Position numbers and translations under genes: made by a program. 64,000 nt of DNA, taken from the NCBI GenBank assembly GCA_052390115.1, contig JBQTHE010000035.1, positions 13,088 to 77,087 of the forward strand. Reading direction: 5' to 3'. This document shows positions 31,813 through 63,863 of the stretch, piece after piece. The notes under the pieces were generated by a model, which worked only from the letters and a program-made list of their open reading frames with translations, was not told where the DNA came from and ran no database searches. The stretch's first letter is position 1; each line of letters begins with the position of its first letter. Source of the DNA: Pseudonocardiales bacterium (lineage in GTDB: Bacteria > Actinomycetota > Actinomycetes > Mycobacteriales > Pseudonocardiaceae).

Positions 31813-31822
31813 TGAGTCGACG

Positions 31823-36631: not shown

Positions 36632-36651
36632 GATTGAGGTGTGCAGGAGTC

Positions 36652-42278: not shown

Positions 42279-42653
42279 CTCATATACGGTCTTTCGACGA
42301 GCGAACCGGACCAGTCTTCAGTGGCATCTGCCGCATTCGTCGATCCCAACAGTGCTCGCTGACACGCCGCTGACCGGGCGCTGATTGCCTGGCCGGGGAA
42401 CACGGTCGCCGTTGCGACGGACAGTGTCGGCAGCAGGCCGAGCCAACGCTCTGACGTCTGTTGGACCGCCAAGCAGGGCGCGTTGGACGCGCTGGCGGCC
42501 CCCACTCCTTCAGGGATGACCGGCGACGAGTAAAGTTTTACCACAAAGGTAATCGACGCCAGTCCGCCGCTGGGTCATACTCGAACATGCGGACGATGCA
42601 GTAATTCGGAAACCATTCTGGATATGTCCCATGAGTGTTACGGGGAGAGAGGC

Positions 42654-43025
42654 ATGAGCGACCTGAGTGCGATTATCGACAAGTATCTGGCTGTCTGGAA
42701 CGAGGTGGACGGGCGTGCGCGGCGCCAGAAAATTGACGAGTTGTGGGCGGAAGACGGCGTCTACGTTGACCCACTGGCGTCGGTGTCCGGCCCCGATGCC
42801 TTCGATCAGGTGGTCGGCGGTGCCCAAGGGCAGTTCAAGGGTTTGAAGTTCGTTCGCGGTGACACGTTCGATGAGCACCACAACATCGTCCGATTCACCT
42901 GGAACCTGGTACCCACCGAAAACGCCGAGCCTATTGCGATCGGTTTCGATGTGGCCGTCGTCGGCGAGGACGGTCGGATCCAAGGTGTCTACGGCTTTAT
43001 CGACAAGATGCCGGCGACCGCCTAG
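42654..43025 (+). CDS. NTF2/SnoaL-like small protein
   Basis: MSDLSAIIDKYLAVWNEVDGRARRQKIDELWAEDGVYVDP...RFTWNLV. Confidence 0.7.
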   Translation: MSDLSAIIDKYLAVWNEVDGRARRQKIDELWAEDGVYVDPLASVSGPDAFDQVVGGAQGQFKGLKFVRGDTFDEHHNIVRFTWNLVPTENAEPIAIGFDVAVVGEDGRIQGVYGFIDKMPATA

Positions 43026-43136
43026 ATAGTGATGTTCGCCGCGCTTTCGGTTCGCCGGGCGCGATAGGGCTGACACGGCTCTCATTGCGCCCGGCGGATT
43101 CCACCAACACCATATGGACGCACTGGTGCCGTCGTC

Positions 43137-44190: not shown

Positions 44191-44294
44191 GCGCTCGGTG
44201 GCGGTCACTCGTTTGCGTGGTCGGACTCGCGCTGAGCAGGCTCCTTACCTCTGACGTAATCGATGTGCCAGACGTTCTCTGCGATCGTGTTTTC

Positions 44295-50269: not shown

Positions 50270-50291
50270 TCTGAAGCTCCTTTCGAGCAGG

Positions 50292-51755
50292 TCACTGCGG
50301 CAGGTTGTCGTGCCGGTAGTGCGGCTGATTGGCACCGGACAGCGCGCGTAGCGTCGCGGCAACCACCGCTGGGGTCTGCTGCGGCTGGATGATCTCGTCC
50401 ACGGACATCCGTTCCGCAGCGAGATGCACGGCCGTGGCCTCCGCCCGGTAACGCGAGACCAGGGCGTCCCGGGCGTCCGGATCGGCGGCAAGCTCCCGCC
50501 GGAAGATCACGTCGACAGCGCCCTCGGCGCCCATCACCGTCAGTTCCGCGCCCGGCCAGGCGAATACCGCGTCCGCGCCGAGCGACTTGGAGTTCATGAC
50601 GATGTACGCGCCGCCGAACGCCTTGCGCAGCACCACCGTCACCCGCGGCACTGTCGCTTCGGCGTAGGCGTACAACAGCTTGGCACCCTTGCGGATCACC
50701 CCGCCGTTCTCCTGGCTGGTGCCGGGCAGGAAACCGGGCGTGTCCACCAGGGTCACCAACGGCAGGCCGAAAGCGTCACACATGCGCACGAACCGGGCCG
50801 CCTTCTCCGCGGACCTGATGTCCAGCGTGCCGGCCAGCTCCTGGGGCTGGTTGGCCACCACACCGACCGGCGCGCCCTCGACTCTGGCGAAGCCGATCAC
50901 GATGTTGGGGGCGAACCGCGGCTGCAGCTCGAGGAAGCTGCCGGCGTCCACCACACCGCGAATCACGCCCCGCACGTCGTAGGACTTGCGGTGGTCGGCG
51001 GGCACCTCGGGTACCGGTTCCGGCTCGCACGGCAGCGTCATGGGCGGCCGGTCCCAGCAGGACGCCGGCAGGTAGGACAGCACCTGGCGGGCCAGTGCGA
51101 TGGCCTTGCACTCGTTCTCAGCCTCCAGGTGAACCACCCCGGAGTGCCTTGTGTGCACGTCGATCCCGCCGAGTTCCTCGCCGGTGACGTCTTCGAAGGT
51201 GACCGCCTTGACCACCCTGGGACCGGTGAGGAACATCTGCGCCCTCGGTCGCTGCATGATCACCACGTCGGTGAGGGCCGGCGAGTACACGGCGCCGCCC
51301 GCGCACGGGCCGAGGATCACCGAGATCTGCGGAATCCGGCCGGACTGCAGCACGTTGGCCCGGAAGATGCCGCCGTAGCCGTCCAGCGCGCCGACACCCT
51401 CCTGGATGCGGGCACCGCCGGAGTCCAGCAATCCCACCACAGGCATCCGGGAACGGGCCGCGCACCCCATGATCCGGATGATCTTGGCGGCATGCACCTC
51501 GCCGAGCGAGCCGCCGAGCACGGAGGAGTCCTGGGCGAACAGCGCCAGAGGGCAGCCGCCAACTCGTGCCAGTCCGGTGAGCACACCGTCGCCGGCCGGA
51601 CGGCGGTGCTGCATGTCGAACGCTGTGCTGCGGTGCCGGGCCTGGCTGCCCAGCTCGGCGAAGGAGTCGGGATCAGCCAACTGGGCCAGTCGCTGCCGCG
51701 CGGACAGCTGCACCGGCGGGTGGGCGGCCACGGCGTCCGGCGCGACGGCGGTCAT
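50292..51755 (-). CDS. Acyl-CoA carboxylase carboxyltransferase (beta) subunit, AccD/PccB-type
   Basis: The ATG shares ATGA with the KS stop. GGSLGEVHAAKIIRIM, DSGGARIQEGV, GPCAGGAVYSPALTD, FAWPGAELTVMGAEGAV. No biotin-carboxylase partner in the window. Confidence 0.85.
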   Translation of the reverse strand: MTAVAPDAVAAHPPVQLSARQRLAQLADPDSFAELGSQARHRSTAFDMQHRRPAGDGVLTGLARVGGCPLALFAQDSSVLGGSLGEVHAAKIIRIMGCAARSRMPVVGLLDSGGARIQEGVGALDGYGGIFRANVLQSGRIPQISVILGPCAGGAVYSPALTDVVIMQRPRAQMFLTGPRVVKAVTFEDVTGEELGGIDVHTRHSGVVHLEAENECKAIALARQVLSYLPASCWDRPPMTLPCEPEPVPEVPADHRKSYDVRGVIRGVVDAGSFLELQPRFAPNIVIGFARVEGAPVGVVANQPQELAGTLDIRSAEKAARFVRMCDAFGLPLVTLVDTPGFLPGTSQENGGVIRKGAKLLYAYAEATVPRVTVVLRKAFGGAYIVMNSKSLGADAVFAWPGAELTVMGAEGAVDVIFRRELAADPDARDALVSRYRAEATAVHLAAERMSVDEIIQPQQTPAVVAATLRALSGANQPHYRHDNLPQ

Positions 51756-52969
51756 GGTGCGGTCACCACCAACACCGCGTTCTGCCCACCGAAGCCGAAC
51801 GAGTTGCTCACCGCGACCTCGATGCGTCGGCGGACCGGATGATCCGCCACCTGGATGCTGATGCGGGGGTCCAGGTGATTCAGGTTGGCAGTTGGTGGAA
51901 CCAGCTGGCATTCGAGCGCGAGCACCGAGAACGCCGCCTCCGCGGCGCCCGCCGCGCCGAACATGTGGCCGGTCACTCCCTTGGTCGAGGTGACCACGGG
52001 TCGGTCGCCGAGCACCCGGTCGATCACTTGAGCCTCGATGATGTCGTTGAGCGGGGTCGACGTGCCGTGCGCATTCACGTGATCGACCTGGTCGGGTCCG
52101 ATCCGAGCGTCGGCCAGCGCCGTTCGCAGTGCCTGTTCGCACCCCCGACCGGCCGGATCCGGCGCGGTGACGTGGTGTGCATCGGCGCTTGCGCCGAAGC
52201 CGGCCACCATCCCGCGCACCCGGGCACCCCTGGCCCGCGCGTCTGCTGGTCGTTCCAGCACTAGCACCGCACCACCCTCGCCGGCCACAAAGCCGTCCCG
52301 CGCCTCGTCGAACGGCCGGGACGCCGACGACGGATCACCGACCCGGCCCGACAGCGCGCCCATCTGGGCGAATCCGGCCATCACCAGCGGGGTGATCATC
52401 GCCTCGCTGCCGCCGGCGAGCACGACGTCACACCGGTCCAGCGTGAGCAGGTCACGCGCCAACCCGATGGCGGTGGCGCCCGAGGCGCACGCGGTGGCCA
52501 CCACCAGGCTCGGGCCGGTGAGGCCGAGGTCGATGGACACCTGGCCGGCCGACATATTCGGCAGCTGCATGGGCAGCAGCAACGGCGACACCCTGGTCGG
52601 CGCCTCATCGAGCAGCACGCGGTGCTGCTGCTCCACCGTGCCGGGGCCGCCGTCGGCGCACCCCAGCACCACTGCGATCCGGGCGCTGTCCCAGGCCACC
52701 GGGTCGAGACCGGCGTCGGCCACCGCCTCTCGCGCGGCCACCACGGCGAACTGTACGAACCGGTCCATCCTTCTGGCCACCCGGCCACCGAGCAGCTCGG
52801 TTGGCTCGACCGAGACCCGGGAACTGAAGTTCACCGGCAGGCCGGCCAGCGTCGGGTCGGGTCGCGCGGTCGGTATGCCGGTGCTGACGCCGGCCCAGGA
52901 CGCCGCGACGTCGGCTCCGGCCGGCGTGTACATGCCGAGGCCGGTGACCGCGACAGGACACCCCGCCAT
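51752..52969 (-). CDS. Beta-ketoacyl-ACP synthase II (FabF-like elongating KS)
   Basis: ATACASGATAIG (Cys), NAHGTSTPLND, TGHMFGAAG. 1-nt overlap (TGATG) with the ACP gene. Confidence 0.9.
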   Translation of the reverse strand: MAGCPVAVTGLGMYTPAGADVAASWAGVSTGIPTARPDPTLAGLPVNFSSRVSVEPTELLGGRVARRMDRFVQFAVVAAREAVADAGLDPVAWDSARIAVVLGCADGGPGTVEQQHRVLLDEAPTRVSPLLLPMQLPNMSAGQVSIDLGLTGPSLVVATACASGATAIGLARDLLTLDRCDVVLAGGSEAMITPLVMAGFAQMGALSGRVGDPSSASRPFDEARDGFVAGEGGAVLVLERPADARARGARVRGMVAGFGASADAHHVTAPDPAGRGCEQALRTALADARIGPDQVDHVNAHGTSTPLNDIIEAQVIDRVLGDRPVVTSTKGVTGHMFGAAGAAEAAFSVLALECQLVPPTANLNHLDPRISIQVADHPVRRRIEVAVSNSFGFGGQNAVLVVTAP

Positions 52970-53202
52970 CAGACCGTCGCACTCCGGCTTGTGACCAGGT
53001 CCACGACCGACTCCAGCCGACCGGCTTGCGCTAGGTCGTCGTCGGTCACCCGGACGCCGATCTCCTTCTCGATGACCAGGGCGAGCTCGACCAGGTCCAG
53101 CGAGTCGAGGCCGAGGTCCCTCAGCGTGGCCTCCGGCTCGATGTCCTCGGTCGGCACCTGGAACTTGCGCTCCATGATTTGCTTGAGGTGCTCGTACATC
53201 AA
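52969..53202 (-). CDS. Acyl carrier protein
   Basis: LRDLGLDSLDLVELAL. ATGA overlap with KASIII. Confidence 0.85.
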   Translation of the reverse strand: MMYEHLKQIMERKFQVPTEDIEPEATLRDLGLDSLDLVELALVIEKEIGVRVTDDDLAQAGRLESVVDLVTSRSATV

Positions 53203-54323
53203 TTTCTCCTAGGTGGTGGCGACGGGGAATCGGTCGGCTCCGCCTCGTCGCATGAGCTGGCCAGCTGGTCGCCGGTCGCGGCGAACGCAGTGATGTCGGG
53301 CCAGCGCAGGGTGGCCGCGCCCCAGGTGAGGCCACCGCCGAAGCCGGCGACCAGAACTCGGTGACCGGCTCGCAGCTCGCCGGCCACCGCGGCCTGGGCC
53401 AGCAGCAGTGGGATGGACGCCGCGGCGGTGTTGCCGACCCGGTCGATGTTGCTGACCTGCCGGTCCCTGGTGATACCCAGCCCTGACGCGACCGAGGCGC
53501 AGATCCGAATGTTGGCCTGGTGCGGGACGAACCTGTCGACGTCTTCGACACGCCAGCCGGCTCGGCGCAGCGCGCGCAGCGAACAGTCGGTGATCCGCTC
53601 GACCGCATTCCGGTAGACTTCGCCGCCGCGCATCTGGAAGTAGCGGTCGGCCTCGGCCATCTGCTCGCCGGAGGAACGCTGCCGCGCTCCCCCGGACGGG
53701 ATGCAGATCAGCTCGCTACCGCCACCGTCGCTGCCCAGCACGCACGGCCCGACCACGCCCGGCTCGCCGGCCGTGCCGGCCCGCAGCACCACCGCTCCGG
53801 CGCCGTCGGCGAAGATCACCGCGGTGTTCCGGTCGTTCGGGTTGATGATCGTGGAAAACGCCTCGGCACCAATCAGCAGCACCCGGTCGGCGGTGCCGCT
53901 GGCGATCACACCGACCGCGCTGGCCAGCCCGTAGAGGAATCCGCTGCACACCGCGGACACGTCCCAGGCCGCCACCCCGGTCAGCCCGAGCCGGGCGGCC
54001 ACCGCGGGCGCGGTCGCCGGGCACAGGCAGTCGGGCGTGGTGGTGGCCAGCACCACCGCGTCCACGTCGACTCCACCGGCGGACTTAAGCGCCAGCGCGC
54101 CGGCCTCTGTGGCCAGGTCGCCGGTGGCCATGCCCCGGTCGACCACGTGCCGGGCCCGGATGCCGGTCCGGCTGGTGATCCACTCGTCCGAGGTGTTCAG
54201 GTGGGTGGCCAGGTCGTCGTTGGTCACCACCCGAGGTGGGAGCCAGGCGCCCGCACCGCAGATCACCGCGTGCCGGTCCGCGGCGGGACCCCGACGGGCG
54301 GTTGACGTTGCCACGGTGGTCAT
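53199..54323 (-). CDS. Beta-ketoacyl-ACP synthase III (FabH-like) with ~30-aa C-terminal extension
   Basis: AVCSGFLYG (Cys), VPHQANIRI (His), VGNTAAASIP (Asn). ATGA overlap with the di-iron gene. Confidence 0.85.
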   Translation of the reverse strand: MTTVATSTARRGPAADRHAVICGAGAWLPPRVVTNDDLATHLNTSDEWITSRTGIRARHVVDRGMATGDLATEAGALALKSAGGVDVDAVVLATTTPDCLCPATAPAVAARLGLTGVAAWDVSAVCSGFLYGLASAVGVIASGTADRVLLIGAEAFSTIINPNDRNTAVIFADGAGAVVLRAGTAGEPGVVGPCVLGSDGGGSELICIPSGGARQRSSGEQMAEADRYFQMRGGEVYRNAVERITDCSLRALRRAGWRVEDVDRFVPHQANIRICASVASGLGITRDRQVSNIDRVGNTAAASIPLLLAQAAVAGELRAGHRVLVAGFGGGLTWGAATLRWPDITAFAATGDQLASSCDEAEPTDSPSPPPRRN

Positions 54324-55300
54324 GGAGCGGACCGTGCACTCGAGAGCACGCCGTCCAGACCCATATAGGTCATCCGGACCTCGGCCATCTGGTCTGTCCA
54401 CCGCTGAGCCATGTCGTAGCGCTCCTCGGGCGTGGTATCCAGCATCCGCTGGCCCGGCCAGATCTCGTAGTCGCCGATCAGTCCCGCATGCTGTGCCATG
54501 CCCTGCTGGAATAGTTCCTCGCGGGTCATCACGTACTTGCGGTCCGGCACCGCGTCCCACAGCCGCTCACCCTCGGCGAGTATCTCCAGCAGCCGGGGCC
54601 GGTACTCTGGGTGCGCGCTCAGGTGGTCTCGGATGATCGAGCTGCCGACGGTGAGGTGGCGGATCTCGTCGATGGCCGCGCCGCGAGCGATCTCGCTGGC
54701 CGCCGGGTCGAGACGATCCCATTTGCGTTCGCTGAGCTCGGCCGCCGGCGCGAGCACACCCTCGATCACGATGGTGAAGATGGCGACTCCGCCGACGAAG
54801 TCGCCCTCGTCGCGCATCACTCGCAGGGCGAACTCCTCCACTGGGTCGAGCACCTCCGCGGTGTAGTCCGCGGACATCTCGGCGATGGTGGGCAGCAGCT
54901 TGTTCGCCGGCACACCTATGTCGACCAGATGGTTGCGGAACACCATGGCGTGCCGGGCCTCGTCGACCAGCTGCGTGGTGTAGAACTCGATCTCCGGAAT
55001 ACCCGGCGCTGAAGCGACGTAGTGGGCCAGAATGCGGGTCGCCTTCTCCTCGGCTACCGAGCGGTATCCAAGCTCAAGCAACAGAGCTTCGCGCAGCGGG
55101 CCCGGTTCGCGCATGTGGTCTGGGGTGATCACGCCGACCGCATACCCTTTCGCCGCCCTGCCGCGCAGGGTGCCCTGGGCGACCGAGCTGAGCCAGTACG
55201 CAAGATCGCACTGCTTCGCGGTCAGGACGAGGTTCATCGCGCCGTCCAGCAGCCCGGGAGCGGTGTCCCAGCCTGCCTCGCGCGGGATGGCGTCGGTCAT
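54320..55300 (-). CDS. Ferritin-like di-iron carboxylate oxygenase (candidate N-oxygenase / azoxy-forming enzyme)
   Basis: Two E...ExxH units: EIEFYTTQLVDEARHAMVF and IEGVLAP...AIDEIRHLTVG. RBS gaggaagg. ATGA overlap with the flavin reductase stop. Confidence 0.7.
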   Translation of the reverse strand: MTDAIPREAGWDTAPGLLDGAMNLVLTAKQCDLAYWLSSVAQGTLRGRAAKGYAVGVITPDHMREPGPLREALLLELGYRSVAEEKATRILAHYVASAPGIPEIEFYTTQLVDEARHAMVFRNHLVDIGVPANKLLPTIAEMSADYTAEVLDPVEEFALRVMRDEGDFVGGVAIFTIVIEGVLAPAAELSERKWDRLDPAASEIARGAAIDEIRHLTVGSSIIRDHLSAHPEYRPRLLEILAEGERLWDAVPDRKYVMTREELFQQGMAQHAGLIGDYEIWPGQRMLDTTPEERYDMAQRWTDQMAEVRMTYMGLDGVLSSARSAP

Positions 55301-55887
55301 CGCGTAAGCCTTCCTCTCGGTGTCAGCTGGATTCCGAGGTGCGGACCGAGGCAGCCGAGGTGGTTGGTCGGGCGGAAATCGTCGGAAAGGGCGCACAGCG
55401 ACCCGCCGTGCAGGGTGCTGGCGAAACTGAGCAGTGGGGAACCGACGCCGGTTTCGCCCGACGCCACGACGGCGAGCAGGAGGCAGTGGTCGCCGGCCGG
55501 CAGCCAGCGGCTGAGCCGGCACGTCAGGTAGGACAGCGAGCCGTTGATCAACGGGGCATCGCTGGTCGAGTCGGTCCGGCAGCGGATGCCGTCGAACTGC
55601 GCGCTGCCGCGGGGCCGGTCGGGGTGGGCAAACCATCGGGCCAGGGCAGCCTGCTCGGTGTTCAGCACGTTCACCGAGAACCATTGCCGGTCGCGAACGC
55701 GCCGGAGAAACGACGAGCTTCGGGCCAGGCTCACTCCGATGAGCAACGGTTCCCTGGACACCGCGGCCAGCGCGCTGACCGTCGTGCCGTGTGCGCCGCG
55801 CTCGTCGGCGAGGGTGAGCACCGAAACCCCGGAGGTGAACCGGCGGACCGCTCTATGGTGGTTTTTGGTCACTACCTCGGTGATCAT
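55297..55887 (-). CDS. NAD(P)H:flavin reductase (HpaC/VlmR-type)
   Basis: RAVRRFTSGVSVLTLADERGAHGTTVSALAAVSREPLLIGVSL...FSVNVL. Confidence 0.8.
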   Translation of the reverse strand: MITEVVTKNHHRAVRRFTSGVSVLTLADERGAHGTTVSALAAVSREPLLIGVSLARSSSFLRRVRDRQWFSVNVLNTEQAALARWFAHPDRPRGSAQFDGIRCRTDSTSDAPLINGSLSYLTCRLSRWLPAGDHCLLLAVVASGETGVGSPLLSFASTLHGGSLCALSDDFRPTNHLGCLGPHLGIQLTPRGRLTR

Positions 55888-55901: not shown

Positions 55902-56414
55902 TCAGCCGGCCGCGGTCTGCCGGGCGGTACGGGAGGCCTCCGGTGTGTCCTGGGCGGTCGGCTCGACGTCGCTGCGGGATTCCAAGGCGGCACGCAGCTT
56001 CAGGTACGCCGGGTGCGGCTGGGGTTCGAAGGACAGGTTGAACGGCTTGAGGAAGTTGCCGAACAGTCCCCGGTCACCGAACAGGTGGATGGGGATGGCC
56101 AGTAGGGCCCACTCCCACCCGACGAACAGCACCCACAGCGCTATCACCGCGCTCTGGGTGATCAGGCTGTGCATGGTGTTGTAGAGCACGTAGTAGATCT
56201 TGGGGATCCGTTTGGTGCTGCTGCGGTGCCAGGCGATGGCGCCAGGGAGGTAACCGATGAGATCGATGTAGACGAACAGGACCACCGCCGGCAGCCAGCG
56301 GACCTGGTCGATGTGCACGACGAACAGGGCGACTGCGACGGCGAACAACACCAGGTACTCGGCGCGGTGCAGGCGGTAGGTCGTGCGACTCTCAAAGGGA
56401 TTGGCCTGGTCCAT
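55902..56414 (-). CDS. Small integral membrane protein (DUF4260-like, ~4 TM); candidate VlmO-type N-N-forming component
   Basis: RLHRAEYLVLFAVAVALFVVH, LPAVVLFVYIDLIGYLPGAI, YYVLYNTMHSLITQSAVIALWVLF, ALLAIPIHLFGDRG. Assignment to a VlmO-like role is by context only. Confidence 0.55.
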   Translation of the reverse strand: MDQANPFESRTTYRLHRAEYLVLFAVAVALFVVHIDQVRWLPAVVLFVYIDLIGYLPGAIAWHRSSTKRIPKIYYVLYNTMHSLITQSAVIALWVLFVGWEWALLAIPIHLFGDRGLFGNFLKPFNLSFEPQPHPAYLKLRAALESRSDVEPTAQDTPEASRTARQTAAG

Positions 56415-56420
56415 GATCAG

Positions 56421-56921
56421 TCACCTCTCAGCGGGCGCGCCGGCGACCGGGGCCGGCACGAGTTCCAGTTCGCCGTCCAGGTGCACGTCGTCGAACATGC
56501 CGACCACGACCCAGGCGACGGTCTCCTTGATGACGCGTTCGGCGATCGGGTCGAGAATGCCCTCCAAACTCGGGATGCCGAAGTCGAAGTCGACCTCGAA
56601 GTGCAACTCGGTGTCCTCGCCGGAGTGGCGCAGTGTCCAATGTCCGGTGAACTCGTCGAAATCCCCGTTCTGCTGTTCGAACTTGATCACCAGATCGTCC
56701 CGCAGGAACTGCTCCTGTTCGGTCCAACGCAGTAGTCCGCTGCGGAAGCGCAGCACCCAACTCGACCGGCCGGTCGGCGCGGGCCGTGTCTGGTGCACGA
56801 CCGCGGACTGCACGTGCGGGGCCAGTTCCGGGTACCGTTCGAACTTGACCACCGAGTCATAGACCGTCTCCGGGGACACGCCCCTGATCAGCGCGTTCAG
56901 CTGGACATGCCGCATGGTCAT
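56421..56921 (-). CDS. SRPBCC (START/cyclase-dehydrase fold) protein
   Basis: VSPETVYDSVVKFERYPELAPHV...WVLRFRSGLLRWTEQEQF...FEQQNGDFDEFTGHWTL. ATGA overlap with the aminotransferase stop. Confidence 0.7.
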   Translation of the reverse strand: MTMRHVQLNALIRGVSPETVYDSVVKFERYPELAPHVQSAVVHQTRPAPTGRSSWVLRFRSGLLRWTEQEQFLRDDLVIKFEQQNGDFDEFTGHWTLRHSGEDTELHFEVDFDFGIPSLEGILDPIAERVIKETVAWVVVGMFDDVHLDGELELVPAPVAGAPAER

Positions 56922-58204
56922 TTACCGCCTTCCGGCATGCGAGCACGCCGGGAGATCAGATCTCTGGTCGCGCGGTCGAATGATCGGATCAGGAACTCCA
57001 CGTCGGAGTCGGTGAGAATGGCCGGTGGGGTGAATCGGACCGTCGCGATGCCGTTCATCGAATGGTTGGCTATCACGCCGTGGTTGAACAGCTCGATCAA
57101 CATCTCGCCGGCAAGGCCGGCCTCGACGAATTCGACACCGATCAGCAGGCCTTTGCCGCGGACGTCGACCACCAGGTCGCCGCAGTTCTCGCGCGCGATG
57201 CGCTCGATCTCCGGCAGCAGTAGGGCGCCGAGTTCGGCGGCCTTGGTGATCAATCGGTCCTCCTTGATAGCCTGGATCGCGCCCCGCACGGCGGCCATCA
57301 GCACCGGCGCCCCGGAGAAGGTGGCGGTGTGCACGTACGGGTCCTTGTCGAACGGCGAGAAGATCTGCCGGTTGGCCACCGCGGCGGACACCGGCAGCAC
57401 GCCGCCGCCCAGTGCCTTGCCGGTCAGCAGCACGTCCGGCACCACACCTTCGAGGTCGACACCCCACCATTCGCCGAGTCGGCCCATGCCGCTCTGCACC
57501 TCGTCGATGATCAGGAAACCGTCGTGCTTACGGCACAAGTCCGCGACGCTGGTCAGGTAGCCGGGCGGCGGGATGATCACGCCACCCTCGCCCTGCACCG
57601 GTTCGACGATCACGCCGACCTCACCTGGATGCGCCGCCAGTTCGCGTTCCAGCGCCTCGTTGTGGCCGAACGGCACGTGCGTCACGTCGGGCAGCAGCGG
57701 CTGGAACGGCTTCTGGTAGACGTCCTTGGCTGTCACGGACAGAGCACCGAGCGTCTTTCCGTGATAGCCGTGGTGCATCGAGACCAGCCGCCGCTTGCCG
57801 TGCGCCCTGGCCAGCTTCAGGCCGGTCTCCACAGCTTCGGCGCCGGAGAGCGCGAAGTGCACCCGGTCCATGCCGGGTGGGGTGACCGAGGCCAGCGCCT
57901 CGGCCGCCCTGGCCACCGTCGGTTCGAGCAGGATCCTGGTGGAGATCGGGTGGGCGTGCAGTTGGCTGAGCACGGCGTCCATCACGATCGGATGCCGTGC
58001 GCCCATGATGAACACGCCGTACCCGCCGCAGTTGAGGAACTCCCCGGCATCGCTAGTGCGCAGCCACGCGCCGGCGGAGGCGACCTCCATGTGGCTGCCG
58101 AAAAGTTCGGCGAGCGTGGCCCGCCCCTTGCTCAGATGCGCCCGGTACAGGTCGAGGATCTCCGCCCCGGAGTCGACCGGCGCGGCTGTGTCGATCACGG
58201 TCAC
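56918..58204 (-). CDS. Class III PLP-dependent (omega-)aminotransferase
   Basis: GGYGVFIMGARHP, HGYHGKTLGALS, IIDEVQSGMGRLG, LLTGKALGGG (PLP Lys). Confidence 0.85.
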   Translation of the reverse strand: MTVIDTAAPVDSGAEILDLYRAHLSKGRATLAELFGSHMEVASAGAWLRTSDAGEFLNCGGYGVFIMGARHPIVMDAVLSQLHAHPISTRILLEPTVARAAEALASVTPPGMDRVHFALSGAEAVETGLKLARAHGKRRLVSMHHGYHGKTLGALSVTAKDVYQKPFQPLLPDVTHVPFGHNEALERELAAHPGEVGVIVEPVQGEGGVIIPPPGYLTSVADLCRKHDGFLIIDEVQSGMGRLGEWWGVDLEGVVPDVLLTGKALGGGVLPVSAAVANRQIFSPFDKDPYVHTATFSGAPVLMAAVRGAIQAIKEDRLITKAAELGALLLPEIERIARENCGDLVVDVRGKGLLIGVEFVEAGLAGEMLIELFNHGVIANHSMNGIATVRFTPPAILTDSDVEFLIRSFDRATRDLISRRARMPEGGK

Positions 58205-58249: not shown

Positions 58250-59386
58250 TCAGGAAAGTCGCAGTGGCCCGCCGGCGAAGTAATCCAGAAGCGGTTCGGC
58301 CGCGCTGCTCCGCGACGGCGGGTGGAAGGCCAATGCACGCACCGCGCAGGACAGGTAGGCGATATCGGAGGACCGGATGAAGGCGATGCCGCCGAGCAGC
58401 TCCACGGCCAGATCGGTGGTGGCCGCCAAGGCTGCCTGCACGGCGTAGCGGGCCACCAGCACGGCGGCGACCGCGTCGTCGCCGGACAGCCCGTCGTCGA
58501 CGGCGCGGGCCACTCCCTCCAACTGGCCGACGGCGGACTCGAGGCCCACCGCGACCGCGGCCCGGTCGGTCACGCTTCCCCTGCCACCATCCAGCACTTG
58601 GGCGGCAAGCGCGCTGGCCGCGCCGACGTAGACCGACGAGATCAGCATGACGAACCACACGAAGCCCGCGGTCTGCAGGTCGTCCAGGCGGTGCGGATCG
58701 TCGGGCCTGGTACGGATGACCAACTCGTCGGGCACTCGGACGTCGGTCAGCCGGACCTCGTCGCTCTGCGCGGCGGCCAGCACCCAGCTGGACCAGAAGG
58801 GATGCACCGAGATCCCCGGCGAGTGCGCCGGAACTAGCGCGACCGCCAGGGAATCCGTACCTTCCGTGGACAGCGCGACGCTCGCGGTCAGCAAGTCCAT
58901 CGACCCGGACAGGCTGCAGGGCTTCTTGCTGCCACTGAGCATCCAGTTGTCGCCGTCGGGTCGGGCGGACACGCTGGGCAGCAGGATGTTCTGGTTCGGC
59001 TTGCCCTCCGCCCAGCCCGAGGCCATCAGCAGGCCGTCCGGTACCACCCTGGACAGCAGGTCGATCTGCAGGCCGGTGAGCCGGTCGGCGGTGCGGGCAA
59101 GGGAGAACAGCATCGCCGCGGTGAAGTGGTGCATGGTGACGGCGGCACCGAGCGACGGCGAGCACGAGGACAGGCCGCGCATCACGCGGATCGCTTCCAA
59201 CGCGCCGGCGCCCGCTCCGGAGTACTCCGGCGGCACCAGCAGACCGACGCCGCCGAACTTGCGAAACAGCCCGATCACCGGGCTGCCGACGGCCTCGCGT
59301 TCCAGCAACGGAATCTCGTCGAGGGCCGCGCACAGCCCGGGGTGGTGCTTCTCGCAGACCTGCCGTGCCGCGTCCAGCGAGCGCAT
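58250..59386 (-). CDS. Acyl-CoA-dehydrogenase-fold flavoprotein; candidate two-component amine N-hydroxylase (VlmH-like)
   Basis: RBS aaggag before ATG 59386. ACAD-like architecture (FGGVGLLVPPEYSGAGAG..., WMLSGSKKPCSLS, C-terminal helical bundle). A flavin reductase is encoded in the same operon. Confidence 0.65.
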   Translation of the reverse strand: MRSLDAARQVCEKHHPGLCAALDEIPLLEREAVGSPVIGLFRKFGGVGLLVPPEYSGAGAGALEAIRVMRGLSSCSPSLGAAVTMHHFTAAMLFSLARTADRLTGLQIDLLSRVVPDGLLMASGWAEGKPNQNILLPSVSARPDGDNWMLSGSKKPCSLSGSMDLLTASVALSTEGTDSLAVALVPAHSPGISVHPFWSSWVLAAAQSDEVRLTDVRVPDELVIRTRPDDPHRLDDLQTAGFVWFVMLISSVYVGAASALAAQVLDGGRGSVTDRAAVAVGLESAVGQLEGVARAVDDGLSGDDAVAAVLVARYAVQAALAATTDLAVELLGGIAFIRSSDIAYLSCAVRALAFHPPSRSSAAEPLLDYFAGGPLRLS

Positions 59387-59457
59387 GTGGATCTCCTTGG
59401 GTCGGGGCGGGAAAGGTCGGGGTAGGGCAACGTCGTGGTCCGGCGATGGCCGCACCT

Positions 59458-61113
59458 TCAGCAGCCGAACATGGCGTCACGCGGGCGTATACCGGTGGCG
59501 ATGCTGACCCCCTGCAGATGGGAGGTCTTGAGGATCGGGTAGTTGGCCTCGCCGAACACACCGCCGGTCAATCCCGTGCCACCGTGGGTGGGCAGGATCG
59601 GCAGGAAGCCGATGTGCGAGTCATTGATCTTGAGCAGGCCGGCGTTGCGGACGTCGCGCACGAAGCGGTCGATGACCTCGGTCGAGGCCGACCACAGCGA
59701 GTTGCGCAGCCCGTACTCGTTGGCGTTGACGAACCCGATGACCAGATCGAGCAACACCTCGTCGGGTGCGTGTTCGGGCACCACCACCGGCAGCATCGGG
59801 TAGAAAGTCTCGTGCCTGACCACCGCCAGTTCCCGCGCGCCGGACATCCCGTCGACCCGCAGCACGGTCGGTTCCAGGAACACCCCGGTCTCCGACGGCG
59901 TGCCGTCCAGCTCCACCCGCCGGCCGCCGGTGATTACCCGCGCGCCCTGCTCGAGCGCCTGGCGCAATTGGGCGAAGAACTTCTCGCTGCGGCGGACCGG
60001 GGACAGCAGCACGTCCTCGTCGTCGGGATAACCGGGCCGGATCCGGGCGGCCTGCTCCCGGAGCCTGGCTAGCAGCTCGTCAGCGATGTCGGGGTGGGCC
60101 ACCACGTACTTGGGCACCATGCAGATCTGGCCGGACCCGAAGAAGCACTCGGTGATGGCTTCGGCCGCCATGTCCAGGTCGCCGTCGTGCCACACGACGA
60201 GGCCGTCGTTGCCGGCGAGTTCAAGGATCGGCTTCTTGCCCCTGGCCACGCACTCGGTTTGCAGCCGCAGACCCTCTTCGCTGCCGCCGATGTAGAAGAT
60301 GTCGTTGACGAGCGGGTGTTGCAGCCATCGATCGAGGATCTGGCGCGGCGGCCCGCAGACAACGTTCAGCGTGCCGGCAGGCGCGTCCAGATCCTCCAGC
60401 AGCGGCACCACCAGATCCCGGAGCACGTACATGCTGCTCAGCGCGATGCTGCGGGGCGCCCGCACCACCACGGCGTTGCCAGCCATCAGCGCCAGCACGG
60501 CCAGCGCTGCGCTGGGCGCCGGCGCGTTCTGCGGCGGATTCAAGCACACCACACCGTCGGGCTGGTACCGCACGATCAGCCGACGCGAGCCGTACGCGAA
60601 CTCGGTGTACATCTGCTGCGCGTACCAGGAGCAGCTCTCCTGGCTGAACACCTGCATCAGACAGGTGAACTCCCATTCGGCCAGCTTGCGGGGGTGCGCC
60701 TCGGCCACGAGCATGCCCAGGAACTCCTCACGGTGGCGCACGAGCTTGTGCCGGAACAGTTCGCCGAGGCGCAGCCGCTCGGCCAGCGGTACGCCAGCCC
60801 ACACCGGTGCGGCGGCCGCCGCGGCCTCGATGGAGGCGTCCACCTGCTCCGCGCTGGCTACCGCGCAGCGGCCGACCACGTAGGGGTGGCCGCCGGCGTC
60901 GGAGTGCGGGTCCTGCTCGAGTGCCCGCTTGAGGCGCACGCTAGTGAACACGTCCTCCAGCAGGGAGCGGGCGGTCACCGTGTACACCCAGGCGATTCCC
61001 TCCACGTCCCTGCCGGCGATATAGGAATGGTAACTTCGCAATCCGACAGTATTAATCGCCTCGGCGTCCTCCAGATCCACACTGAGGATTTGGACGTTAT
61101 AGTCGGCAACCAC
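59458..61113 (-). CDS. Aldehyde dehydrogenase-superfamily enzyme (possible acyl-thioester reductase / aldehyde-forming)
   Basis: ILELAGNDGLVV (catalytic Glu region) and FFGSGQICMVPKYVV (catalytic Cys). 551 aa with N- and C-terminal extensions. Confidence 0.75.
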   Translation of the reverse strand: MVADYNVQILSVDLEDAEAINTVGLRSYHSYIAGRDVEGIAWVYTVTARSLLEDVFTSVRLKRALEQDPHSDAGGHPYVVGRCAVASAEQVDASIEAAAAAAPVWAGVPLAERLRLGELFRHKLVRHREEFLGMLVAEAHPRKLAEWEFTCLMQVFSQESCSWYAQQMYTEFAYGSRRLIVRYQPDGVVCLNPPQNAPAPSAALAVLALMAGNAVVVRAPRSIALSSMYVLRDLVVPLLEDLDAPAGTLNVVCGPPRQILDRWLQHPLVNDIFYIGGSEEGLRLQTECVARGKKPILELAGNDGLVVWHDGDLDMAAEAITECFFGSGQICMVPKYVVAHPDIADELLARLREQAARIRPGYPDDEDVLLSPVRRSEKFFAQLRQALEQGARVITGGRRVELDGTPSETGVFLEPTVLRVDGMSGARELAVVRHETFYPMLPVVVPEHAPDEVLLDLVIGFVNANEYGLRNSLWSASTEVIDRFVRDVRNAGLLKINDSHIGFLPILPTHGGTGLTGGVFGEANYPILKTSHLQGVSIATGIRPRDAMFGC

Positions 61114-61226: not shown

Positions 61227-62732
61227 TCAGCCGGCGAGCGCCAGGGTTAGTAGTCGGGACAGCTCTTCGGCCGAACAGGTGGAAAGCGAAGCGAATGTGT
61301 CCGCCACCTCGACCGGCCCACCGTGAGTGAGGAACTTGGTGCGCATCAGTTCGGCGTGCGCGGCGCGGGTGTGGGGGCCGGCGGCACCGATCGGGATGTC
61401 CCGCTGCCTGGTGAACGACCGGCCGTCTGCGAGGTGCACGGTGACTCGGGCCGGGGTGCTCTTGGTCGCGGTCTGGTAGGTCTCAGCAGCCGGGCCGATC
61501 TCGCCGGCCAGCGTCGCTAACTCGGCGCCGCCGAACTTCGCCAGCCAGCAGACAGCGCGTTTCCCGGCCTGGCGGACCGCCTCGCCGAAGGGCGCGACGG
61601 ACTCGAGTAGGCACCTGGTCATCTCCGGGTCGTGCACCAACTGGACCGCTTCGGCCAGCGCCCACCTGCGTGGATCGCTGATCGCGGGCTCAGCGAAGTC
61701 GGCGACGGTCAGGTCACCGGTCAGCAGCGTGGTGGCCACCGCATAGGGGGTGGCCAGCAGCAGCGAGCTGATGGGGGTATCCGCACCGTTGAGGTAGTCT
61801 TCGGCCTTCCGGCCGACGAAGAGGGTATACAGCGAAACGTCGACCACGATCCGTGTCACGTGACGTTGCGGGGATGCGTTGACCGCGACGAGATCGCGGT
61901 GCAGTTCGATGGCGCAGTCCACCGCCGCATCGATACCCGGCCCACCCGGACGGACCTTGAACGACAGCGTGTCGGTATGCCACCGGTGCCCCAGCCCGTC
62001 GGTCACCGCCTCGGGCAACGGCACCGAGGCGAACCGAGCGAGGAAACCGTCCGGATGCTCAAGGATGTCCGGCAAGCCCACCATCTCGGCCGCTGCCGCA
62101 TCGCACGCGTCCATGGCCGTACGCACCGGCGTGAACGCGTGCAACGCCTTGGCATCGCTGCCAAGGAAGCCGTGCATCGACGGCCACATCGGCGTGGTGA
62201 ACGACAGGCCAAGCGCGTCCACCCACCGCCGGGCTGGCGCAGACTCGCTGCGCAGACGGCCGGCCACAGCGCCGGCCAGGTGCGTGTGCAGGGCGCTCTG
62301 TCCTCGGAACGGTCCGAGCGTAGCCGCCGCGGTGATACGGGCGGCGCACTCGTTCGCGGCGATCACCGCGGTGAGCAGCGCGGGGCCGTCCATCCCCAGA
62401 GCGTAGGTGTAGGCAGTCGGGACGGACACGGTCGAACCGCCGAGGTGGCCGGCGTAGGCGGTGTCGTCCAGGTTCAGCCAGGAACCCAGGCCGGCCAGCA
62501 CGCACGCCGACTGGCGTGGATCGGCCTGCAGCGGGGGCCCGAAGGCCCGGACCAGCTTGCGGCCCAACGGATGGATCAGCCCAGCCCGGATGGCGGCGAG
62601 TTGCGAGAGCACCTGACTGCCGGCCAGCGCGACCACTCTCGGCGGTACGTCCGCCAACCGTAGGGTGCTGGCCCACTCGGAGAGTTCCCCTGTCAGCGTC
62701 GCGTGCGCGGTCCGGGTTCCCATGGTGGTCAT
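61227..62732 (-). CDS. MmgE/PrpD-family protein (VlmK-like candidate lyase/dehydratase)
   Basis: The ATG shares ATGA with the kinase stop. LSEWASTLRLADVPPRVVALAGSQVLSQLAAIRAG is a typical PrpD-family N-terminus; 501 aa. Confidence 0.75.
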   Translation of the reverse strand: MTTMGTRTAHATLTGELSEWASTLRLADVPPRVVALAGSQVLSQLAAIRAGLIHPLGRKLVRAFGPPLQADPRQSACVLAGLGSWLNLDDTAYAGHLGGSTVSVPTAYTYALGMDGPALLTAVIAANECAARITAAATLGPFRGQSALHTHLAGAVAGRLRSESAPARRWVDALGLSFTTPMWPSMHGFLGSDAKALHAFTPVRTAMDACDAAAAEMVGLPDILEHPDGFLARFASVPLPEAVTDGLGHRWHTDTLSFKVRPGGPGIDAAVDCAIELHRDLVAVNASPQRHVTRIVVDVSLYTLFVGRKAEDYLNGADTPISSLLLATPYAVATTLLTGDLTVADFAEPAISDPRRWALAEAVQLVHDPEMTRCLLESVAPFGEAVRQAGKRAVCWLAKFGGAELATLAGEIGPAAETYQTATKSTPARVTVHLADGRSFTRQRDIPIGAAGPHTRAAHAELMRTKFLTHGGPVEVADTFASLSTCSAEELSRLLTLALAG

Positions 62733-63715
62733 CGACGAGAACCGTCCAGGGTGGCCATGCCGCTTCGGCACAGTGCGGGAAGGACCCTCGGCAGCACCTG
62801 CAGGGTGAACCGGGTCGCCGTGCCCGTGCGCAGCTCACCGTCGTGCTCGAAGCTCAGCGGCTCGCCGTCGGTCCGTTCGACGGTGACGCGCCGGCCCCGC
62901 GCATACACCACACCCGGCTCGCGCAGGTGTGCACCATTGCGTGTCAGATCGGGTACGTCCACGGGATCGATCTCGCTACCGATCACGCACACATCCAGCA
63001 AACCGTCGTCGAGCACCGAACGGGGCAACACCTGGTAGCTACCGCCACGATGGCGGCCCCCGCCTACGTTGGCCAGCACGGTCTTGCCTGCGTGAACCAC
63101 GGCACCGTCGACGAGGACGCGACCGGGATACGGCACGTACTCAGCCGCGGTCCTGGCCAGCGCGATCCGGTAACGTTCCCGGCCCACGATCGGGACGGAC
63201 CTGACTGTGATCAGAGCGTCGGCGATCAGGCCCGAGCACGCACCGAGCAAGACCAGGGCGTCGAGTTCGACCAGCCGGGCGATGTCGAGCAGGCAACGCC
63301 GGGAACCGTTGCCGCTCAACGCGGCGGGCACCGCCTCCGGCCACGGCAAGTCGCCCCACTGCGCGAGGTAGCTGGAGTTGCCGGTACCGGCCGGGATGAT
63401 CAGCAACGCAGGAAACACGTCCCCGGTGCCCGCCGACAGCAGACCTTGTACCACCTCGCGGACCGTGCCGTCGCCGCCAACCGCGATCACCACGTCGGGT
63501 CGGCGGCTGACCGCCTCGGTGGCCGCCTCGGTGGCCGCCTCGGTGGCCGCCAGGGTGGCGTCACCGCGCTCGGTAGTCCAGCGGACCGACAGCCGGTGGA
63601 CGTGCGGCCGACACAGCTCGACCAGTTCTGCGACTAGATCTGGGCTCACTGTGCCCGCAGCCGGATTCGCTATGACCAGAGCGGCGGAGAACGGCCGACC
63701 GTTCACGTCAACCAT
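62729..63715 (-). CDS. Diacylglycerol-kinase catalytic-domain (LCB5/YegS-type) kinase (VlmJ-like candidate)
   Basis: ALVIANPAAG ... VVIAVGGDGTVREVVQGL (GGDGT motif). RBS gggag upstream of ATG 63715. Confidence 0.8.
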   Translation of the reverse strand: MVDVNGRPFSAALVIANPAAGTVSPDLVAELVELCRPHVHRLSVRWTTERGDATLAATEAATEAATEAVSRRPDVVIAVGGDGTVREVVQGLLSAGTGDVFPALLIIPAGTGNSSYLAQWGDLPWPEAVPAALSGNGSRRCLLDIARLVELDALVLLGACSGLIADALITVRSVPIVGRERYRIALARTAAEYVPYPGRVLVDGAVVHAGKTVLANVGGGRHRGGSYQVLPRSVLDDGLLDVCVIGSEIDPVDVPDLTRNGAHLREPGVVYARGRRVTVERTDGEPLSFEHDGELRTGTATRFTLQVLPRVLPALCRSGMATLDGSRR

Positions 63716-63776
63716 GACTCAGAACTCCCTCGCGGCCATCGTGTGCGGGTGGGATGCACACCGAACGGGCTAGCTG

Positions 63777-63863
63777 CGGAGAGGGCAGGATTCGAACCTG
63801 CGCAGGCACCAGCCTTCCGGACGCACGCGCCCAGACCCGATAGGCCACTACGGGTACCTCTCC
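63777..63863 (-). tRNA. Class II (Ser-type) tRNA-like gene with non-canonical 8-nt anticodon loop; anticodon undeterminable (specialised tRNA or pseudo-tRNA)
   Basis: Hand fold of the minus strand: GGAGAGG-TA-CCCG-TAGTGGCCTAT-CGGG-T-CTGGG-CGCGTGCG-TCCGG-AAGGCTGGTGCCTGC-GCAGG-TTCGAAT-CCTGC-CCTCTCC-G. The acceptor stem (7 bp), D arm, long variable arm (AGGC/GCCT), T arm and G73 are all good. The anticodon stem has two G-U pairs; the loop has 8 nt, no U33 and no Ser anticodon. CCA is not encoded. Confidence 0.6.

Follow-up and report, generated by a model that had tools for sequence, protein, structure and literature searches.

Near one end of a 64,000-nucleotide stretch of a Pseudonocardiales genome (the window), a gene for a kinase of the diacylglycerol-kinase fold is followed directly by a gene for a member of the MmgE/PrpD family. 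Are these enzymes of primary metabolism, or do they act together in making a natural product? The initial annotation took the second view, and saw in the pair a phosphorylation-elimination module like VlmJ and VlmK of valanimycin biosynthesis.

An overlapping kinase and PrpD-like gene pair

The kinase gene (62729..63715, minus strand; 328 aa) matches Pfam DAGK_cat (1e-18) and YegS_C (6e-17), and residues 80-84 of its product form a GGDGT motif that is invariant in the 12 clade members compared; we class its product as a VlmJ-like kinase. The second gene (61227..62732, minus strand; start ATG at 62732) encodes a 501-aa VlmK-like protein, equal in length to its closest homologues, which matches MmgE_PrpD_N (2e-12) and MmgE_PrpD_C (2e-15). 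The minus strand over the junction reads ...cgtcgATGAccacc..., so that the stop codon of the kinase gene (TGA, 62731-62729) and the start codon of the PrpD-like gene (ATG, 62732-62730) share nucleotides as ATGA. The adjacent, co-directional arrangement first described for this pair, with its overlap at 62729-62732, is thus confirmed by open reading frames, Pfam and sequence. Both genes are intact, their nearest relatives showing 85-89% identity across 100% of the length. The pair had also been placed at the head of the operon, and it does lead the protein-coding part; but the operon's first gene is probably not the kinase gene but a co-oriented tRNA-like gene, tRL (63776..63863, minus strand; 88 nt), 60 nt upstream and 137 nt from the end of the window.

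Distance from enzymes of primary metabolism

The Pfam families (DAGK_cat/YegS_C and MmgE/PrpD) and the JGI automatic names ("diacylglycerol kinase (ATP)" and "2-methylcitrate dehydratase PrpD") would suit a lipid or diacylglycerol kinase lying beside the 2-methylcitrate dehydratase of the methylcitrate cycle, but model scores point the other way. The PrpD-like protein reaches 23.2 bits against the NCBIfam prpD equivalog TIGR02330, whose cutoff is 458, and 22.1 bits against PRK09425 (cutoff 575); the kinase reaches 84.7 bits against YegS, its best lipid-kinase model (cutoff 284), and 77 bits against the subfamily model TIGR00147 (cutoff 119). YegS is also the best solved structure for the kinase by sequence (E 2e-14), and sequence comparison places both proteins far from every solved family member. 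An AlphaFold2 model of the PrpD-like protein (pLDDT 80) found its best Foldseek matches in CAD/IRG1, PrpD, MmgE and IDS epimerase (TM 0.6-0.7, 15-19% identity), confirming the PrpD fold at the level of the predicted structure. A search at E <= 1e-3 retrieved only 1180 of 1.84 billion representatives, which marks a narrow, divergent subfamily, and some relatives of the PrpD-like protein bear the UniRef or NCBI name "VlmK-like".

Context agrees with the scores. There is no prpB or prpC among the window ORFs scanned, which comprised all genes at 29977-63715 and the larger ORFs below ~30 kb, nor does the annotation of the mapped plasmid loci show either gene; the pair's neighbours in mapped loci are always secondary-metabolite genes. 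The initial annotation had set against its own proposal a grouping with primary-metabolism enzymes and a prpBC context elsewhere, and neither shows in the scores or in the ORFs and loci covered. Judged by sequence, neither of the two is orthologous to PrpD or YegS, and neither is an enzyme of primary metabolism; that they serve the methylcitrate cycle and lipid phosphorylation we regard as extremely improbable.

An azoxy gene set surrounds the pair

Downstream of the pair, the minus strand carries a run of genes that resemble those of known azoxy pathways. The first encodes an aldehyde dehydrogenase family protein of the fatty-amine branch (59458..61113; Pfam Aldedh 3e-61), collinear in the Kitasatospora locus L081, in L083 and in others. 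It is followed by a VlmH-like flavin N-hydroxylase of the acyl-CoA-dehydrogenase fold (58250..59455), whose Acyl-CoA_dh N and M matches are weak and accompanied by DszC/SfnB-type matches, and whose place in minimal cores, L086 and L091 among them, is that of VlmH. A class III aminotransferase (56918..58204; Aminotran_3 3.5e-83), with NCBIfam matches that include putrescine aminotransferase and prodigiosin PigE, would convert aldehyde to alkylamine; an SRPBCC (polyketide cyclase-like) protein conserved in the operon (56421..56921) comes next. The small membrane protein encoded at 55902..56420 has no Pfam or NCBIfam match, but is 64% identical to a Kitasatospora protein and keeps all four published iron ligands; in the Kitasatospora homologue these are D51/H82/H110/D114, which match the residues named essential for VlmO in a review that cites the K. 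setae entry E4N6B1 (PMC11705231); it is the candidate for N-N bond formation. Beyond it lie a VlmR-like flavin reductase (55297..55887; Flavin_Reduct 1e-25, with NCBIfam flavin reductase matches) and a VlmB-like ferritin-fold di-iron oxygenase (54320..55303), the putative hydrazine-to-azoxy enzyme, which has weak AurF and R2-like matches, is 69% identical to its L081 counterpart and has homologues called "VlmB-like protein" in RefSeq. A single 454-aa "AurF-like" ORF considered for this region was rejected, as it corresponds to the flavin reductase plus the VlmB-like gene. A FabH-like KAS III (53199..54320; start codon uncertain, the L081 homologue having 354 aa) and an acyl carrier protein (52969..53208) complete the run.

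Farther away on the same strand are a membrane fatty-acid-desaturase family gene (49175..50491; FA_desaturase 4e-42), a type I PKS module KS-AT-DH-KR-ACP (36652..42216 as ORF limits, its start not fixed) and an AMP-dependent ligase (35027..36655). By analogy with Ady9/AzdT, whose role has been described (PMC9379638; bioRxiv 2023.10.13.562208), the first is probably the alkyl-chain 1',2'-desaturase. The plus strand carries an NTF2-family gene (42624..43025; tblastn, 50% identity to the annotated L083 NTF2 protein), to which a rejected minus-strand ORF at 42510-43085 is antisense, and a VlmA-like aminoacyl-tRNA-dependent transferase (29977..30993; LPG_synthase_C / DUF2156, Pfam 6.5e-53), 63% identical to its L081 homologue and with 1198 relatives. 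A thioesterase, a luciferase-like oxidoreductase and a P450 also belong to the cluster.

By sequence, then, the conserved azoxy set of VlmA-, VlmH-, VlmR-, VlmO- and VlmB-like genes is complete in the window. The kinase and PrpD-like pair had been held to be the strongest single pointer to an azoxy product, a rank that we give instead to the VlmA/VlmO/VlmB set; the pair argues for a dehydration step only.

Recurrence of the pair in other genomes

Of 80 genome loci, 77 have a homologue of the kinase gene no more than 10 kb from the PrpD-like gene and nearly always right beside it; 182 species genomes carry the pairing. On all seven plasmids (7/7, counted with the kinase gene listed under the same match or in the mapped locus) the PrpD-like gene is inside a VlmA/VlmB-like azoxy cluster. 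In one of these, L086, the pair is accompanied by serS, ilvBNC, DUF2156, VlmH-type and VlmO-type genes, a flavin reductase, a PLP decarboxylase and a "VlmB-like protein", a gene set that by its sequence annotation is valanimycin-like; the PrpD-like proteins of L086 and the window share 58.6% identity. The claim that such a pairing is rare outside valanimycin-type pathways therefore holds as to specificity, the pair being specific to azoxy clusters, but within them it is common. It is also no novelty: VlmJ/VlmK-like pairs recur beside VlmA (PMC9379638; bioRxiv 10.1101/2023.10.13.562208), a pairing already published in 2022, and the present one is an ordinary further example of the known type.

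The arrangement of the two genes varies. An NTF2-family gene separates them in ~58 related loci; in four loci the kinase gene is ~3.7 kb from the PrpD-like gene and on the opposite strand, and in two plasmid loci they are apart. Conservation does not extend to translational coupling. In some 45 Streptomyces loci of the form PKS...kinase-NTF2-PrpD, VlmA was not found within the 10-kb flanks, which end within the PKS, and the genomes concerned are absent from the best 120 of the 1198 VlmA relatives. The sister clusters L087-L089, L090 and L091 have the same operon without the pair, which fits a role of the pair as an optional tailoring module.

A close comparison is with L081, which is collinear with the window at 58-74% identity and runs desaturase, VlmA, two tRNA-like genes, kinase, PrpD-like, ALDH, VlmH-like, aminotransferase, SRPBCC, VlmO, VlmR, VlmB, KAS III, ACP. 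The window differs in having one tRNA-like copy, an overlap rather than 72 nt between kinase and PrpD-like genes, and a VlmA-like gene 33 kb from the operon head.

A proposed dehydration step

Like the window, the valanimycin cluster of Streptomyces viridifaciens has adjacent genes for a YegS-type kinase and an MmgE/PrpD protein, VlmJ and VlmK, in company with VlmA, VlmH, VlmR, VlmO and VlmB. Valanimycin hydrate is reported to be phosphorylated by VlmJ and dehydrated by VlmK (PMC9379638; bioRxiv 10.1101/2023.10.13.562208). We consider the pair, with a probability of roughly 0.78, to be functionally equivalent to VlmJ and VlmK and to dehydrate a serine-derived hydroxyl, an assignment drawn from domains, gene context and homologue names. 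All the checks run—score cutoffs, synteny, plasmid clusters and the Vlm-like gene set—agree, and the phosphorylation-elimination reading of the initial annotation is thereby supported. Its two-step chemistry is carried over from valanimycin: the kinase would use ATP to place a phosphate on the primary hydroxyl of the serine unit (the serine-derived CH2OH) of an aliphatic azoxy intermediate, and the PrpD-fold protein would eliminate that phosphate, creating a 2,3-double bond (exo-methylene) beside the azoxy group.

The same logic, conversion of a serine hydroxyl to a phosphate ester followed by beta-elimination, is used by the lanthipeptide synthetases LanM, LanL and LanKC and by PSTK/SepSecS acting on Ser-tRNASec. 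The folds are unrelated, and the substrates there are peptide or tRNA-bound serine, not a small azoxy acid.

The remaining genes suggest how such an intermediate might arise. KAS III, ACP, the ALDH-family enzyme and the aminotransferase would supply an alkylamine, where valanimycin draws its amine from valine decarboxylation; the VlmH/VlmR-like pair would N-hydroxylate it, the VlmA-like enzyme would move serine from seryl-tRNA onto the N-hydroxylated amine, the VlmO-like protein would make the N-N bond and the VlmB-like protein would turn the hydrazine into the azoxy group. The carboxyl end would probably be extended by ligase, PKS module and thioesterase and the alkene put in by the desaturase, with the pair as an optional tailoring module at the head of the conserved operon. 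These last genes, with the luciferase-like oxidoreductase and the P450, are additions relative to valanimycin; conversely, no seryl-tRNA synthetase gene belongs to the cluster in the window. The VlmH/R-A-O-B cascade, a fatty-amine origin and the azoxyalkene desaturase are shared with KA57-A (azx), elaiomycin and azodyrecin (PMC9379638, PMC11705231, PMC6662830), but azodyrecin uses alanine, and its published gene sets, as far as consulted, list no VlmJ/VlmK pair.

The presence of the AMP-ligase, KS-AT-DH-KR-ACP module, thioesterase and desaturase makes the product probably a chain-extended azoxyalkene and not a simple 2,3-dehydro acid. The predicted dehydro-amino-acid azoxy warhead thus stands as far as the azoxy island is concerned, its VlmA/H/R/O/B-like set being present, and less well as a description of the end product. 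Moreover, if the pathway includes PKS extension, the substrate of the pair may differ from valanimycin hydrate. A second explanation is that the pair belongs to the same pathway but acts with other timing or chemistry: on a hydrazine-stage or PKS-extended substrate, in a decarboxylation or isomerisation (giving, for example, a vinyl-azoxy group), or with the NTF2 protein as third partner. The ligase/PKS branch, present here and not in the mapped stretches of the tRNA-like-gene clusters L090 and L091, would fit this, as would the NTF2-family gene so often lying between the two, and the nearest structural neighbours of the PrpD-like protein are cis-aconitate decarboxylases (CAD/IRG1), not dehydratases. 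Identity to CAD is, however, no better than to PrpD or MmgE, and published genetics and enzymology put VlmJ and VlmK on the free azoxy hydrate (PMC9379638; bioRxiv 2023.10.13.562208). We hold this second explanation to be unlikely, and dehydration of the VlmJ/VlmK type to be the better account.

An upstream tRNA-like gene lacking the anticodon loop

The unexpected element of the locus is the conserved tRNA-like gene just upstream of the pair, which lacks an anticodon loop. It folds as a class II cloverleaf: the acceptor stem has 7 bp (GGAGAGG/CCUCUCC), the T arm is perfect, a D arm and a long variable arm are present, and the discriminator is G, but in place of the anticodon stem-loop there is an 8-bp hairpin with a 4-nt loop. 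ARAGORN and Rfam at its gathering threshold both miss it; in E-value mode Rfam ranks tRNA-Sec first for it, with 30.4 bits and thus below the gathering score of 47, and a covariance model built in this analysis (R1) scores it at 84.6 bits. With R1 we found one to three copies in 21 related loci, often two or three in tandem. The gene is present on 14 of 14 VlmA-bearing Streptomyces plasmids and is conserved across at least four actinomycete families.

Structure was assessed by per-sequence folding and on an in-register alignment subset; a plain MAFFT alignment misplaced the variable-length arms, so that the consensus drawn from it by RNAalifold was not a cloverleaf. In the in-register subset 100% of cells are paired in the acceptor, D and T helices, these arms being near-invariant across genera, and covariation supports the structure, including the hairpin that replaces the anticodon loop. 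Folded one by one, the 32 copies have at the anticodon position an arm of 18-27 nt, in which 6-10 bp close a loop of 3-7 nt, and none has the canonical 5-bp stem and 7-nt loop; the "anticodons" that ARAGORN assigns to copies are contradictory or 2-4 nt long. A tRNA remnant or att site is ruled out by the tandem copies, the covariation and the conservation across families. In RNA-run searches the window sequence matched only DNA runs (cave, soil and other metagenomes), and no RNA run was found for an S. mashuensis copy.

Does the pair act on this RNA? By analogy with PSTK and Ser-tRNASec, the kinase might phosphorylate a seryl ester on it, with the PrpD-like protein eliminating the phosphate while the substrate is still RNA-bound. 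The gene does lie directly upstream of a co-oriented kinase gene in most of the 19 mapped loci, even where the kinase has parted from the PrpD-like gene or VlmA (the window, L044, L064-type), and its best Rfam match is to the PSTK substrate. But it is also found in clusters that have neither member of the pair (L087, L090, L091), in L084, L085, L009 and L032 it stands beside VlmA and far from the kinase, the kinase fold is unrelated to that of PSTK, and the published accounts give a small-molecule substrate. An RNA-bound substrate is very improbable, and we retain the free azoxy intermediate as substrate of the pair.

By sequence the RNA looks like a derivative of tRNASer: its discriminator is G73, its variable arm is long and its D arm resembles that of tRNASer. 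The anticodon stem-loop would have given way to a covarying hairpin of variable length, capped in the manner of a tetraloop. We would give about even odds that it is a cluster-encoded RNA of that origin which is charged by a SerRS, housekeeping or VlmL-type, and serves only as seryl donor to the VlmA-type enzyme. A donor dedicated in this way, with no part in ribosomal decoding, would spare the pathway from competing with translation. In staphylococcal cell-wall synthesis by FemXAB, non-proteinogenic tRNAGly species are dedicated to a Fem/MprF-type transferase and not to the ribosome; these tRNAs have a normal anticodon loop, whereas the tRNA-like RNA has none, and is cluster-encoded, often in two or three tandem copies. 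VlmA is itself a member of the Fem/MprF-type aminoacyl transferase superfamily (PMC12945691).

Significance

The pair chiefly aids annotation, marking the island as an aliphatic azoxy cluster in which the serine unit probably loses water to give a reactive alkene beside the azoxy group, and natural sister clusters with and without it can be compared directly to relate genes to structures. The tRNA-like gene is invisible to protein-based neighbourhood surveys. If the proposed role is true, it would carry more weight than the pair: it would be a cluster-encoded aminoacyl carrier without decoding function, which would explain the second seryl-tRNA synthetase of some azoxy clusters; RNA and transferase would form a natural orthogonal tRNA/transferase pair, and the RNA would be a simple marker for mining genomes for azoxy clusters.

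Overlapping kinase and PrpD-like genes

The window has the G+C content usual for an actinomycete, about 68%, and carries the two genes on its minus strand. The kinase gene (62729-63715) encodes 328 aa with the Pfam domains DAGK_cat (1.1e-18) and YegS_C (5.8e-17); the PrpD-like gene, running from an ATG at 62732 to 61227, encodes 501 aa with MmgE_PrpD_N (2e-12) and MmgE_PrpD_C (2e-15). Both are intact and match their nearest relatives along the whole length at 85-89% identity. The minus strand across the junction reads cgtcgATGAccacc, so that kinase stop and PrpD-like start overlap as ATGA (62732-62729). The GGDGT motif of the kinase, at residues 80-84, is unchanged in 12 clade members, as is its P-x-GTGNS motif. 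The ORFs, domains and junction thus bear out the initial annotation's description of a GGDGT kinase coupled to an MmgE/PrpD protein; its location of the pair at the operon head holds for the conserved protein-coding operon, but the true head is a tRNA-like gene further upstream.

The pair is distinct from primary metabolism

The initial annotation had raised the alternative of a lipid kinase and a 2-methylcitrate dehydratase. The PrpD-like protein scores 23 bits on the NCBIfam prpD equivalog (cutoff 458) and the kinase 85 bits on NCBIfam YegS (cutoff 284), and both identities were rejected. Among solved structures, the PrpD-like protein comes closest in sequence to cis-aconitate decarboxylase/IRG1 (E 2e-4), followed by E. 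coli PrpD (E 0.02), and the kinase to YegS (E 2e-14). Modelled with AlphaFold2 (pLDDT 80, pTM 0.85), the PrpD-like protein adopts the MmgE/PrpD fold; its structural matches to CAD, PrpD, MmgE and iminodisuccinate epimerase reach TM 0.6-0.7 with only 15-19% identity. Of 1.84 billion cluster representatives in a library, only 1180 match at E <= 1e-3, and the count falls to 108 when E <= 1e-30 is required; the subfamily is narrow and divergent. No prpB or prpC was found among the window ORFs scanned. The low equivalog scores, the distant structures and this lack of prpB and prpC in the scanned ORFs thus go against a primary-metabolism grouping in a prpBC context, and neither protein is a primary-metabolism enzyme.

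The pair belongs to azoxy clusters

Relatives at E <= 1e-5 among scored candidates number 682 for the PrpD-like protein, a few already named "VlmK-like protein", and 1085 for the kinase; the top 120 of each, spread over many genera of actinomycetes, show 51-100% identity. Among species genomes, a Pseudonocardiaceae MAG is closest to the window (78% protein identity), and the window sequence is present in sequencing runs with cave and soil metagenome labels, as well as in several coded organisms. When one genome was scanned for each species, 182 genomes contained relatives, and the best 80 loci were fetched; with the window proteins as probes, a kinase homologue is close to the PrpD-like gene in 77 of these 80, adjoining it in nearly all. 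Two layouts recur. The first, that of the window, runs kinase, PrpD-like, ALDH, VlmH-like, aminotransferase, SRPBCC, VlmO-like, VlmB-like, KAS III, ACP; the second, in about 45 Streptomyces loci, comprises PKS, AMP-ligase, luciferase-like oxidoreductase, thioesterase, (MFS, P450), kinase, NTF2-family protein and PrpD-like. Since both gene sets occur together in the window and in loci L001, L002 and L080, the two layouts belong to a single cluster family.

On plasmids, the PrpD-like matches lie inside clusters with DUF2156 (VlmA-type) genes in 7 of 7 cases; of the seven loci mapped or matched, five have genes named "VlmB-like protein" in RefSeq. One plasmid locus, L086, has a valanimycin-like set: kinase, PrpD-like (58.6% identical to that of the window), serS, ilvBNC, DUF2156, VlmH-type, VlmO-type, flavin reductase, VlmB-like and PLP decarboxylase. 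The pairing had been called rare outside valanimycin-type pathways, and this holds throughout our sample (87 of 87 loci); inside the azoxy cluster family it is common. A 2022 protein-family neighbourhood survey had reported VlmJ-like kinases (PF19279) and VlmK-like proteins (PF03972), along with KAS III and seryl-tRNA synthetase, among families co-occurring with VlmA (PMC9379638), so that a pair of this kind was already known.

The ATGA overlap is not general: the genes are 72 nt apart in the Kitasatospora azoxy locus (L081), on opposite strands in four loci, and split by an NTF2-family gene in about 58, from which the NTF2-family protein may be a third partner of the module. The window copy (SnoaL-like; 42624-43025, plus strand) adjoins the PKS, away from the pair; others lie at L022 9422-9790, L044 9434-9802 and L083 31549-31920.

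Azoxy cascade and predicted product

The conserved azoxy cascade is, by predicted function, complete in the window: a VlmA-like transferase (29977-30993, plus; LPG_synthase_C, 6.5e-53) and, on the minus strand, a VlmH-like flavoenzyme (58250-59455), a VlmO-like small membrane protein (55902-56420), a flavin reductase (55297-55887; 1e-25) and a VlmB-like di-iron protein (54320-55303). Treating 54320-55887 (minus) as a single gene (longest ORF 454 aa, weak AurF match) was rejected in favour of the last two. The operon is collinear with the Kitasatospora locus at 58-74% identity, and D51, H82, H110 and D114 of the Kitasatospora VlmO-type protein are all kept in the window; the essential iron ligands of VlmO carry these residue numbers (review PMC11705231). 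Regulators are a SARP (31760-32692, plus), kept beside VlmA in many loci, an MmyB-like protein (43137-43922, minus) and a TetR-family protein (44217-45014, plus).

In the valanimycin pathway the serine-derived hydroxyl of valanimycin hydrate is phosphorylated by VlmJ and the product then dehydrated by VlmK (PMC9379638; bioRxiv 10.1101/2023.10.13.562208). In the window the kinase would phosphorylate, and the PrpD-like protein dehydrate, the serine-derived hydroxyl of its own azoxy intermediate. The family placement and synteny of the pair, with the full cascade, support the proposal of a phosphorylation-elimination module in an azoxy island, and from homology and context we put the probability that the pair performs this chemistry at a little under 0.8.

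The product itself was proposed to be a dehydro-amino-acid azoxy warhead. A short fatty acyl chain is the putative source of an alkylamine, judging from the KAS III, ACP, carboxyltransferase, ALDH-family enzyme and class III aminotransferase genes. Carboxyl-end extension and alkyl-chain desaturation, the latter proposed for Ady9/AzdT in azodyrecin (PMC9379638; bioRxiv 10.1101/2023.10.13.562208), are suggested by genes for an AMP-ligase, a KS-AT-DH-KR-ACP module, thioesterases, a luciferase-like oxidoreductase, a P450 and a membrane desaturase. The azoxy island and predicted dehydration agree with the proposal, but the ligase/PKS branch makes a chain-extended azoxyalkene more likely than a plain 2,3-dehydro acid. 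The same operon occurs without the pair in Actinoplanes teichomyceticus, Actinokineospora, Frankia, S. lavendulae pSA3239 and Streptomyces sp. NBC_00158 (L087-L091); the pair at the operon head is thus an optional addition for tailoring, and these clusters are natural controls for its effect on product structure.

A tRNA-like gene upstream of the kinase

An 88-nt tRNA-like gene (63776-63863, minus strand, like the kinase) lies 60 nt upstream of the kinase start. It was missed by ARAGORN and by Rfam at gathering threshold; in E-value mode Rfam ranks tRNA-Sec first, with 30.4 bits where the gathering score is 47. In its RNA the acceptor stem (7 bp, GGAGAGG/CCUCUCC) and the T arm are perfect, the D arm resembles that of an actinomycete tRNASer, the variable arm is long and the discriminator is G, with an 8-bp helix and 4-nt loop in place of the anticodon stem-loop; the gene is apparently derived from tRNASer. 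The "anticodons" given by ARAGORN for such genes are contradictory or 2-4 nt long.

Among 32 copies, pairwise identity is 90% in the acceptor, D and T parts and only 62% in the middle, which nevertheless forms a hairpin of 18-27 nt (6-10 bp, loop 3-7 nt) in every copy, followed by a variable-arm hairpin of 4-6 bp; the mean folding z-score against shuffles is -2.8. Covariation was tested on a subset of nine sequences aligned in register: pairing extends to 98.4% of cells, and nine pairs are changed on both sides, six within the eight pairs of the extended helix. None of 500 shuffles reached these values, and slid controls paired at only 34-57%.

A covariance model built from 20 copies found 33 full-length copies (73-106 bits), which the window shares with 21 of the first 82 loci, in tandem, 1-3 per locus; a genuine tRNASer(UGA) scored 51 bits and no other tRNA passed. 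Copies occur in L001, L003, L005, L006, L009, L010, L019, L032, L035, L044, L047, L061, L064, L065, L067, L069, L075, L077, L078, L081-L087 and L090-L093. They nearly always adjoin the kinase or VlmA-like gene of azoxy clusters: in most of 19 mapped loci they lie immediately upstream of the kinase, and in L084, L085, L009 and L032 beside VlmA. Clusters without kinase or PrpD-like gene (L087, L090, L091) have them as well. Only 17 of 72,556 plasmids match, 12 at full length, and a VlmA-like gene is present on 11 of these 12; at least one copy occurs on every one of the 14 Streptomyces plasmids that have a VlmA-like gene. The L092 plasmid (NZ_CP108456.1, linear) has three more near-identical copies (59589-59676 and 69575-69761), 8-18 kb past its azoxy cluster, two of them near a neighbouring cluster encoding alanine-tRNA ligase. 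An orphan copy lies among mobile-element genes on a Kitasatospora sp. NBC_00070 plasmid (L093 10001-10097) with no VlmA-like gene at E <= 1e-30. To judge by gaps in its locus-tag series, RefSeq seems to treat some copies as genes and to leave others out. The literature searched, which included a 2026 review on tRNA-dependent enzymes of natural-product biosynthesis, does not mention such an RNA.

The anticodon is not read by seryl-tRNA synthetase. A cluster synthetase was counted in nine related loci, and many related clusters have a VlmL-type one of their own (L002, L009, L010, L035, L069, L077, L083, L086, L087, L091); tblastn found none in the 64-kb window. We give even odds to the RNA being a dedicated seryl carrier for the VlmA-type transferase, unable to decode on the ribosome. 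The pair itself is only modestly interesting, and what deserves follow-up is the tRNA-like gene that heads the operon.
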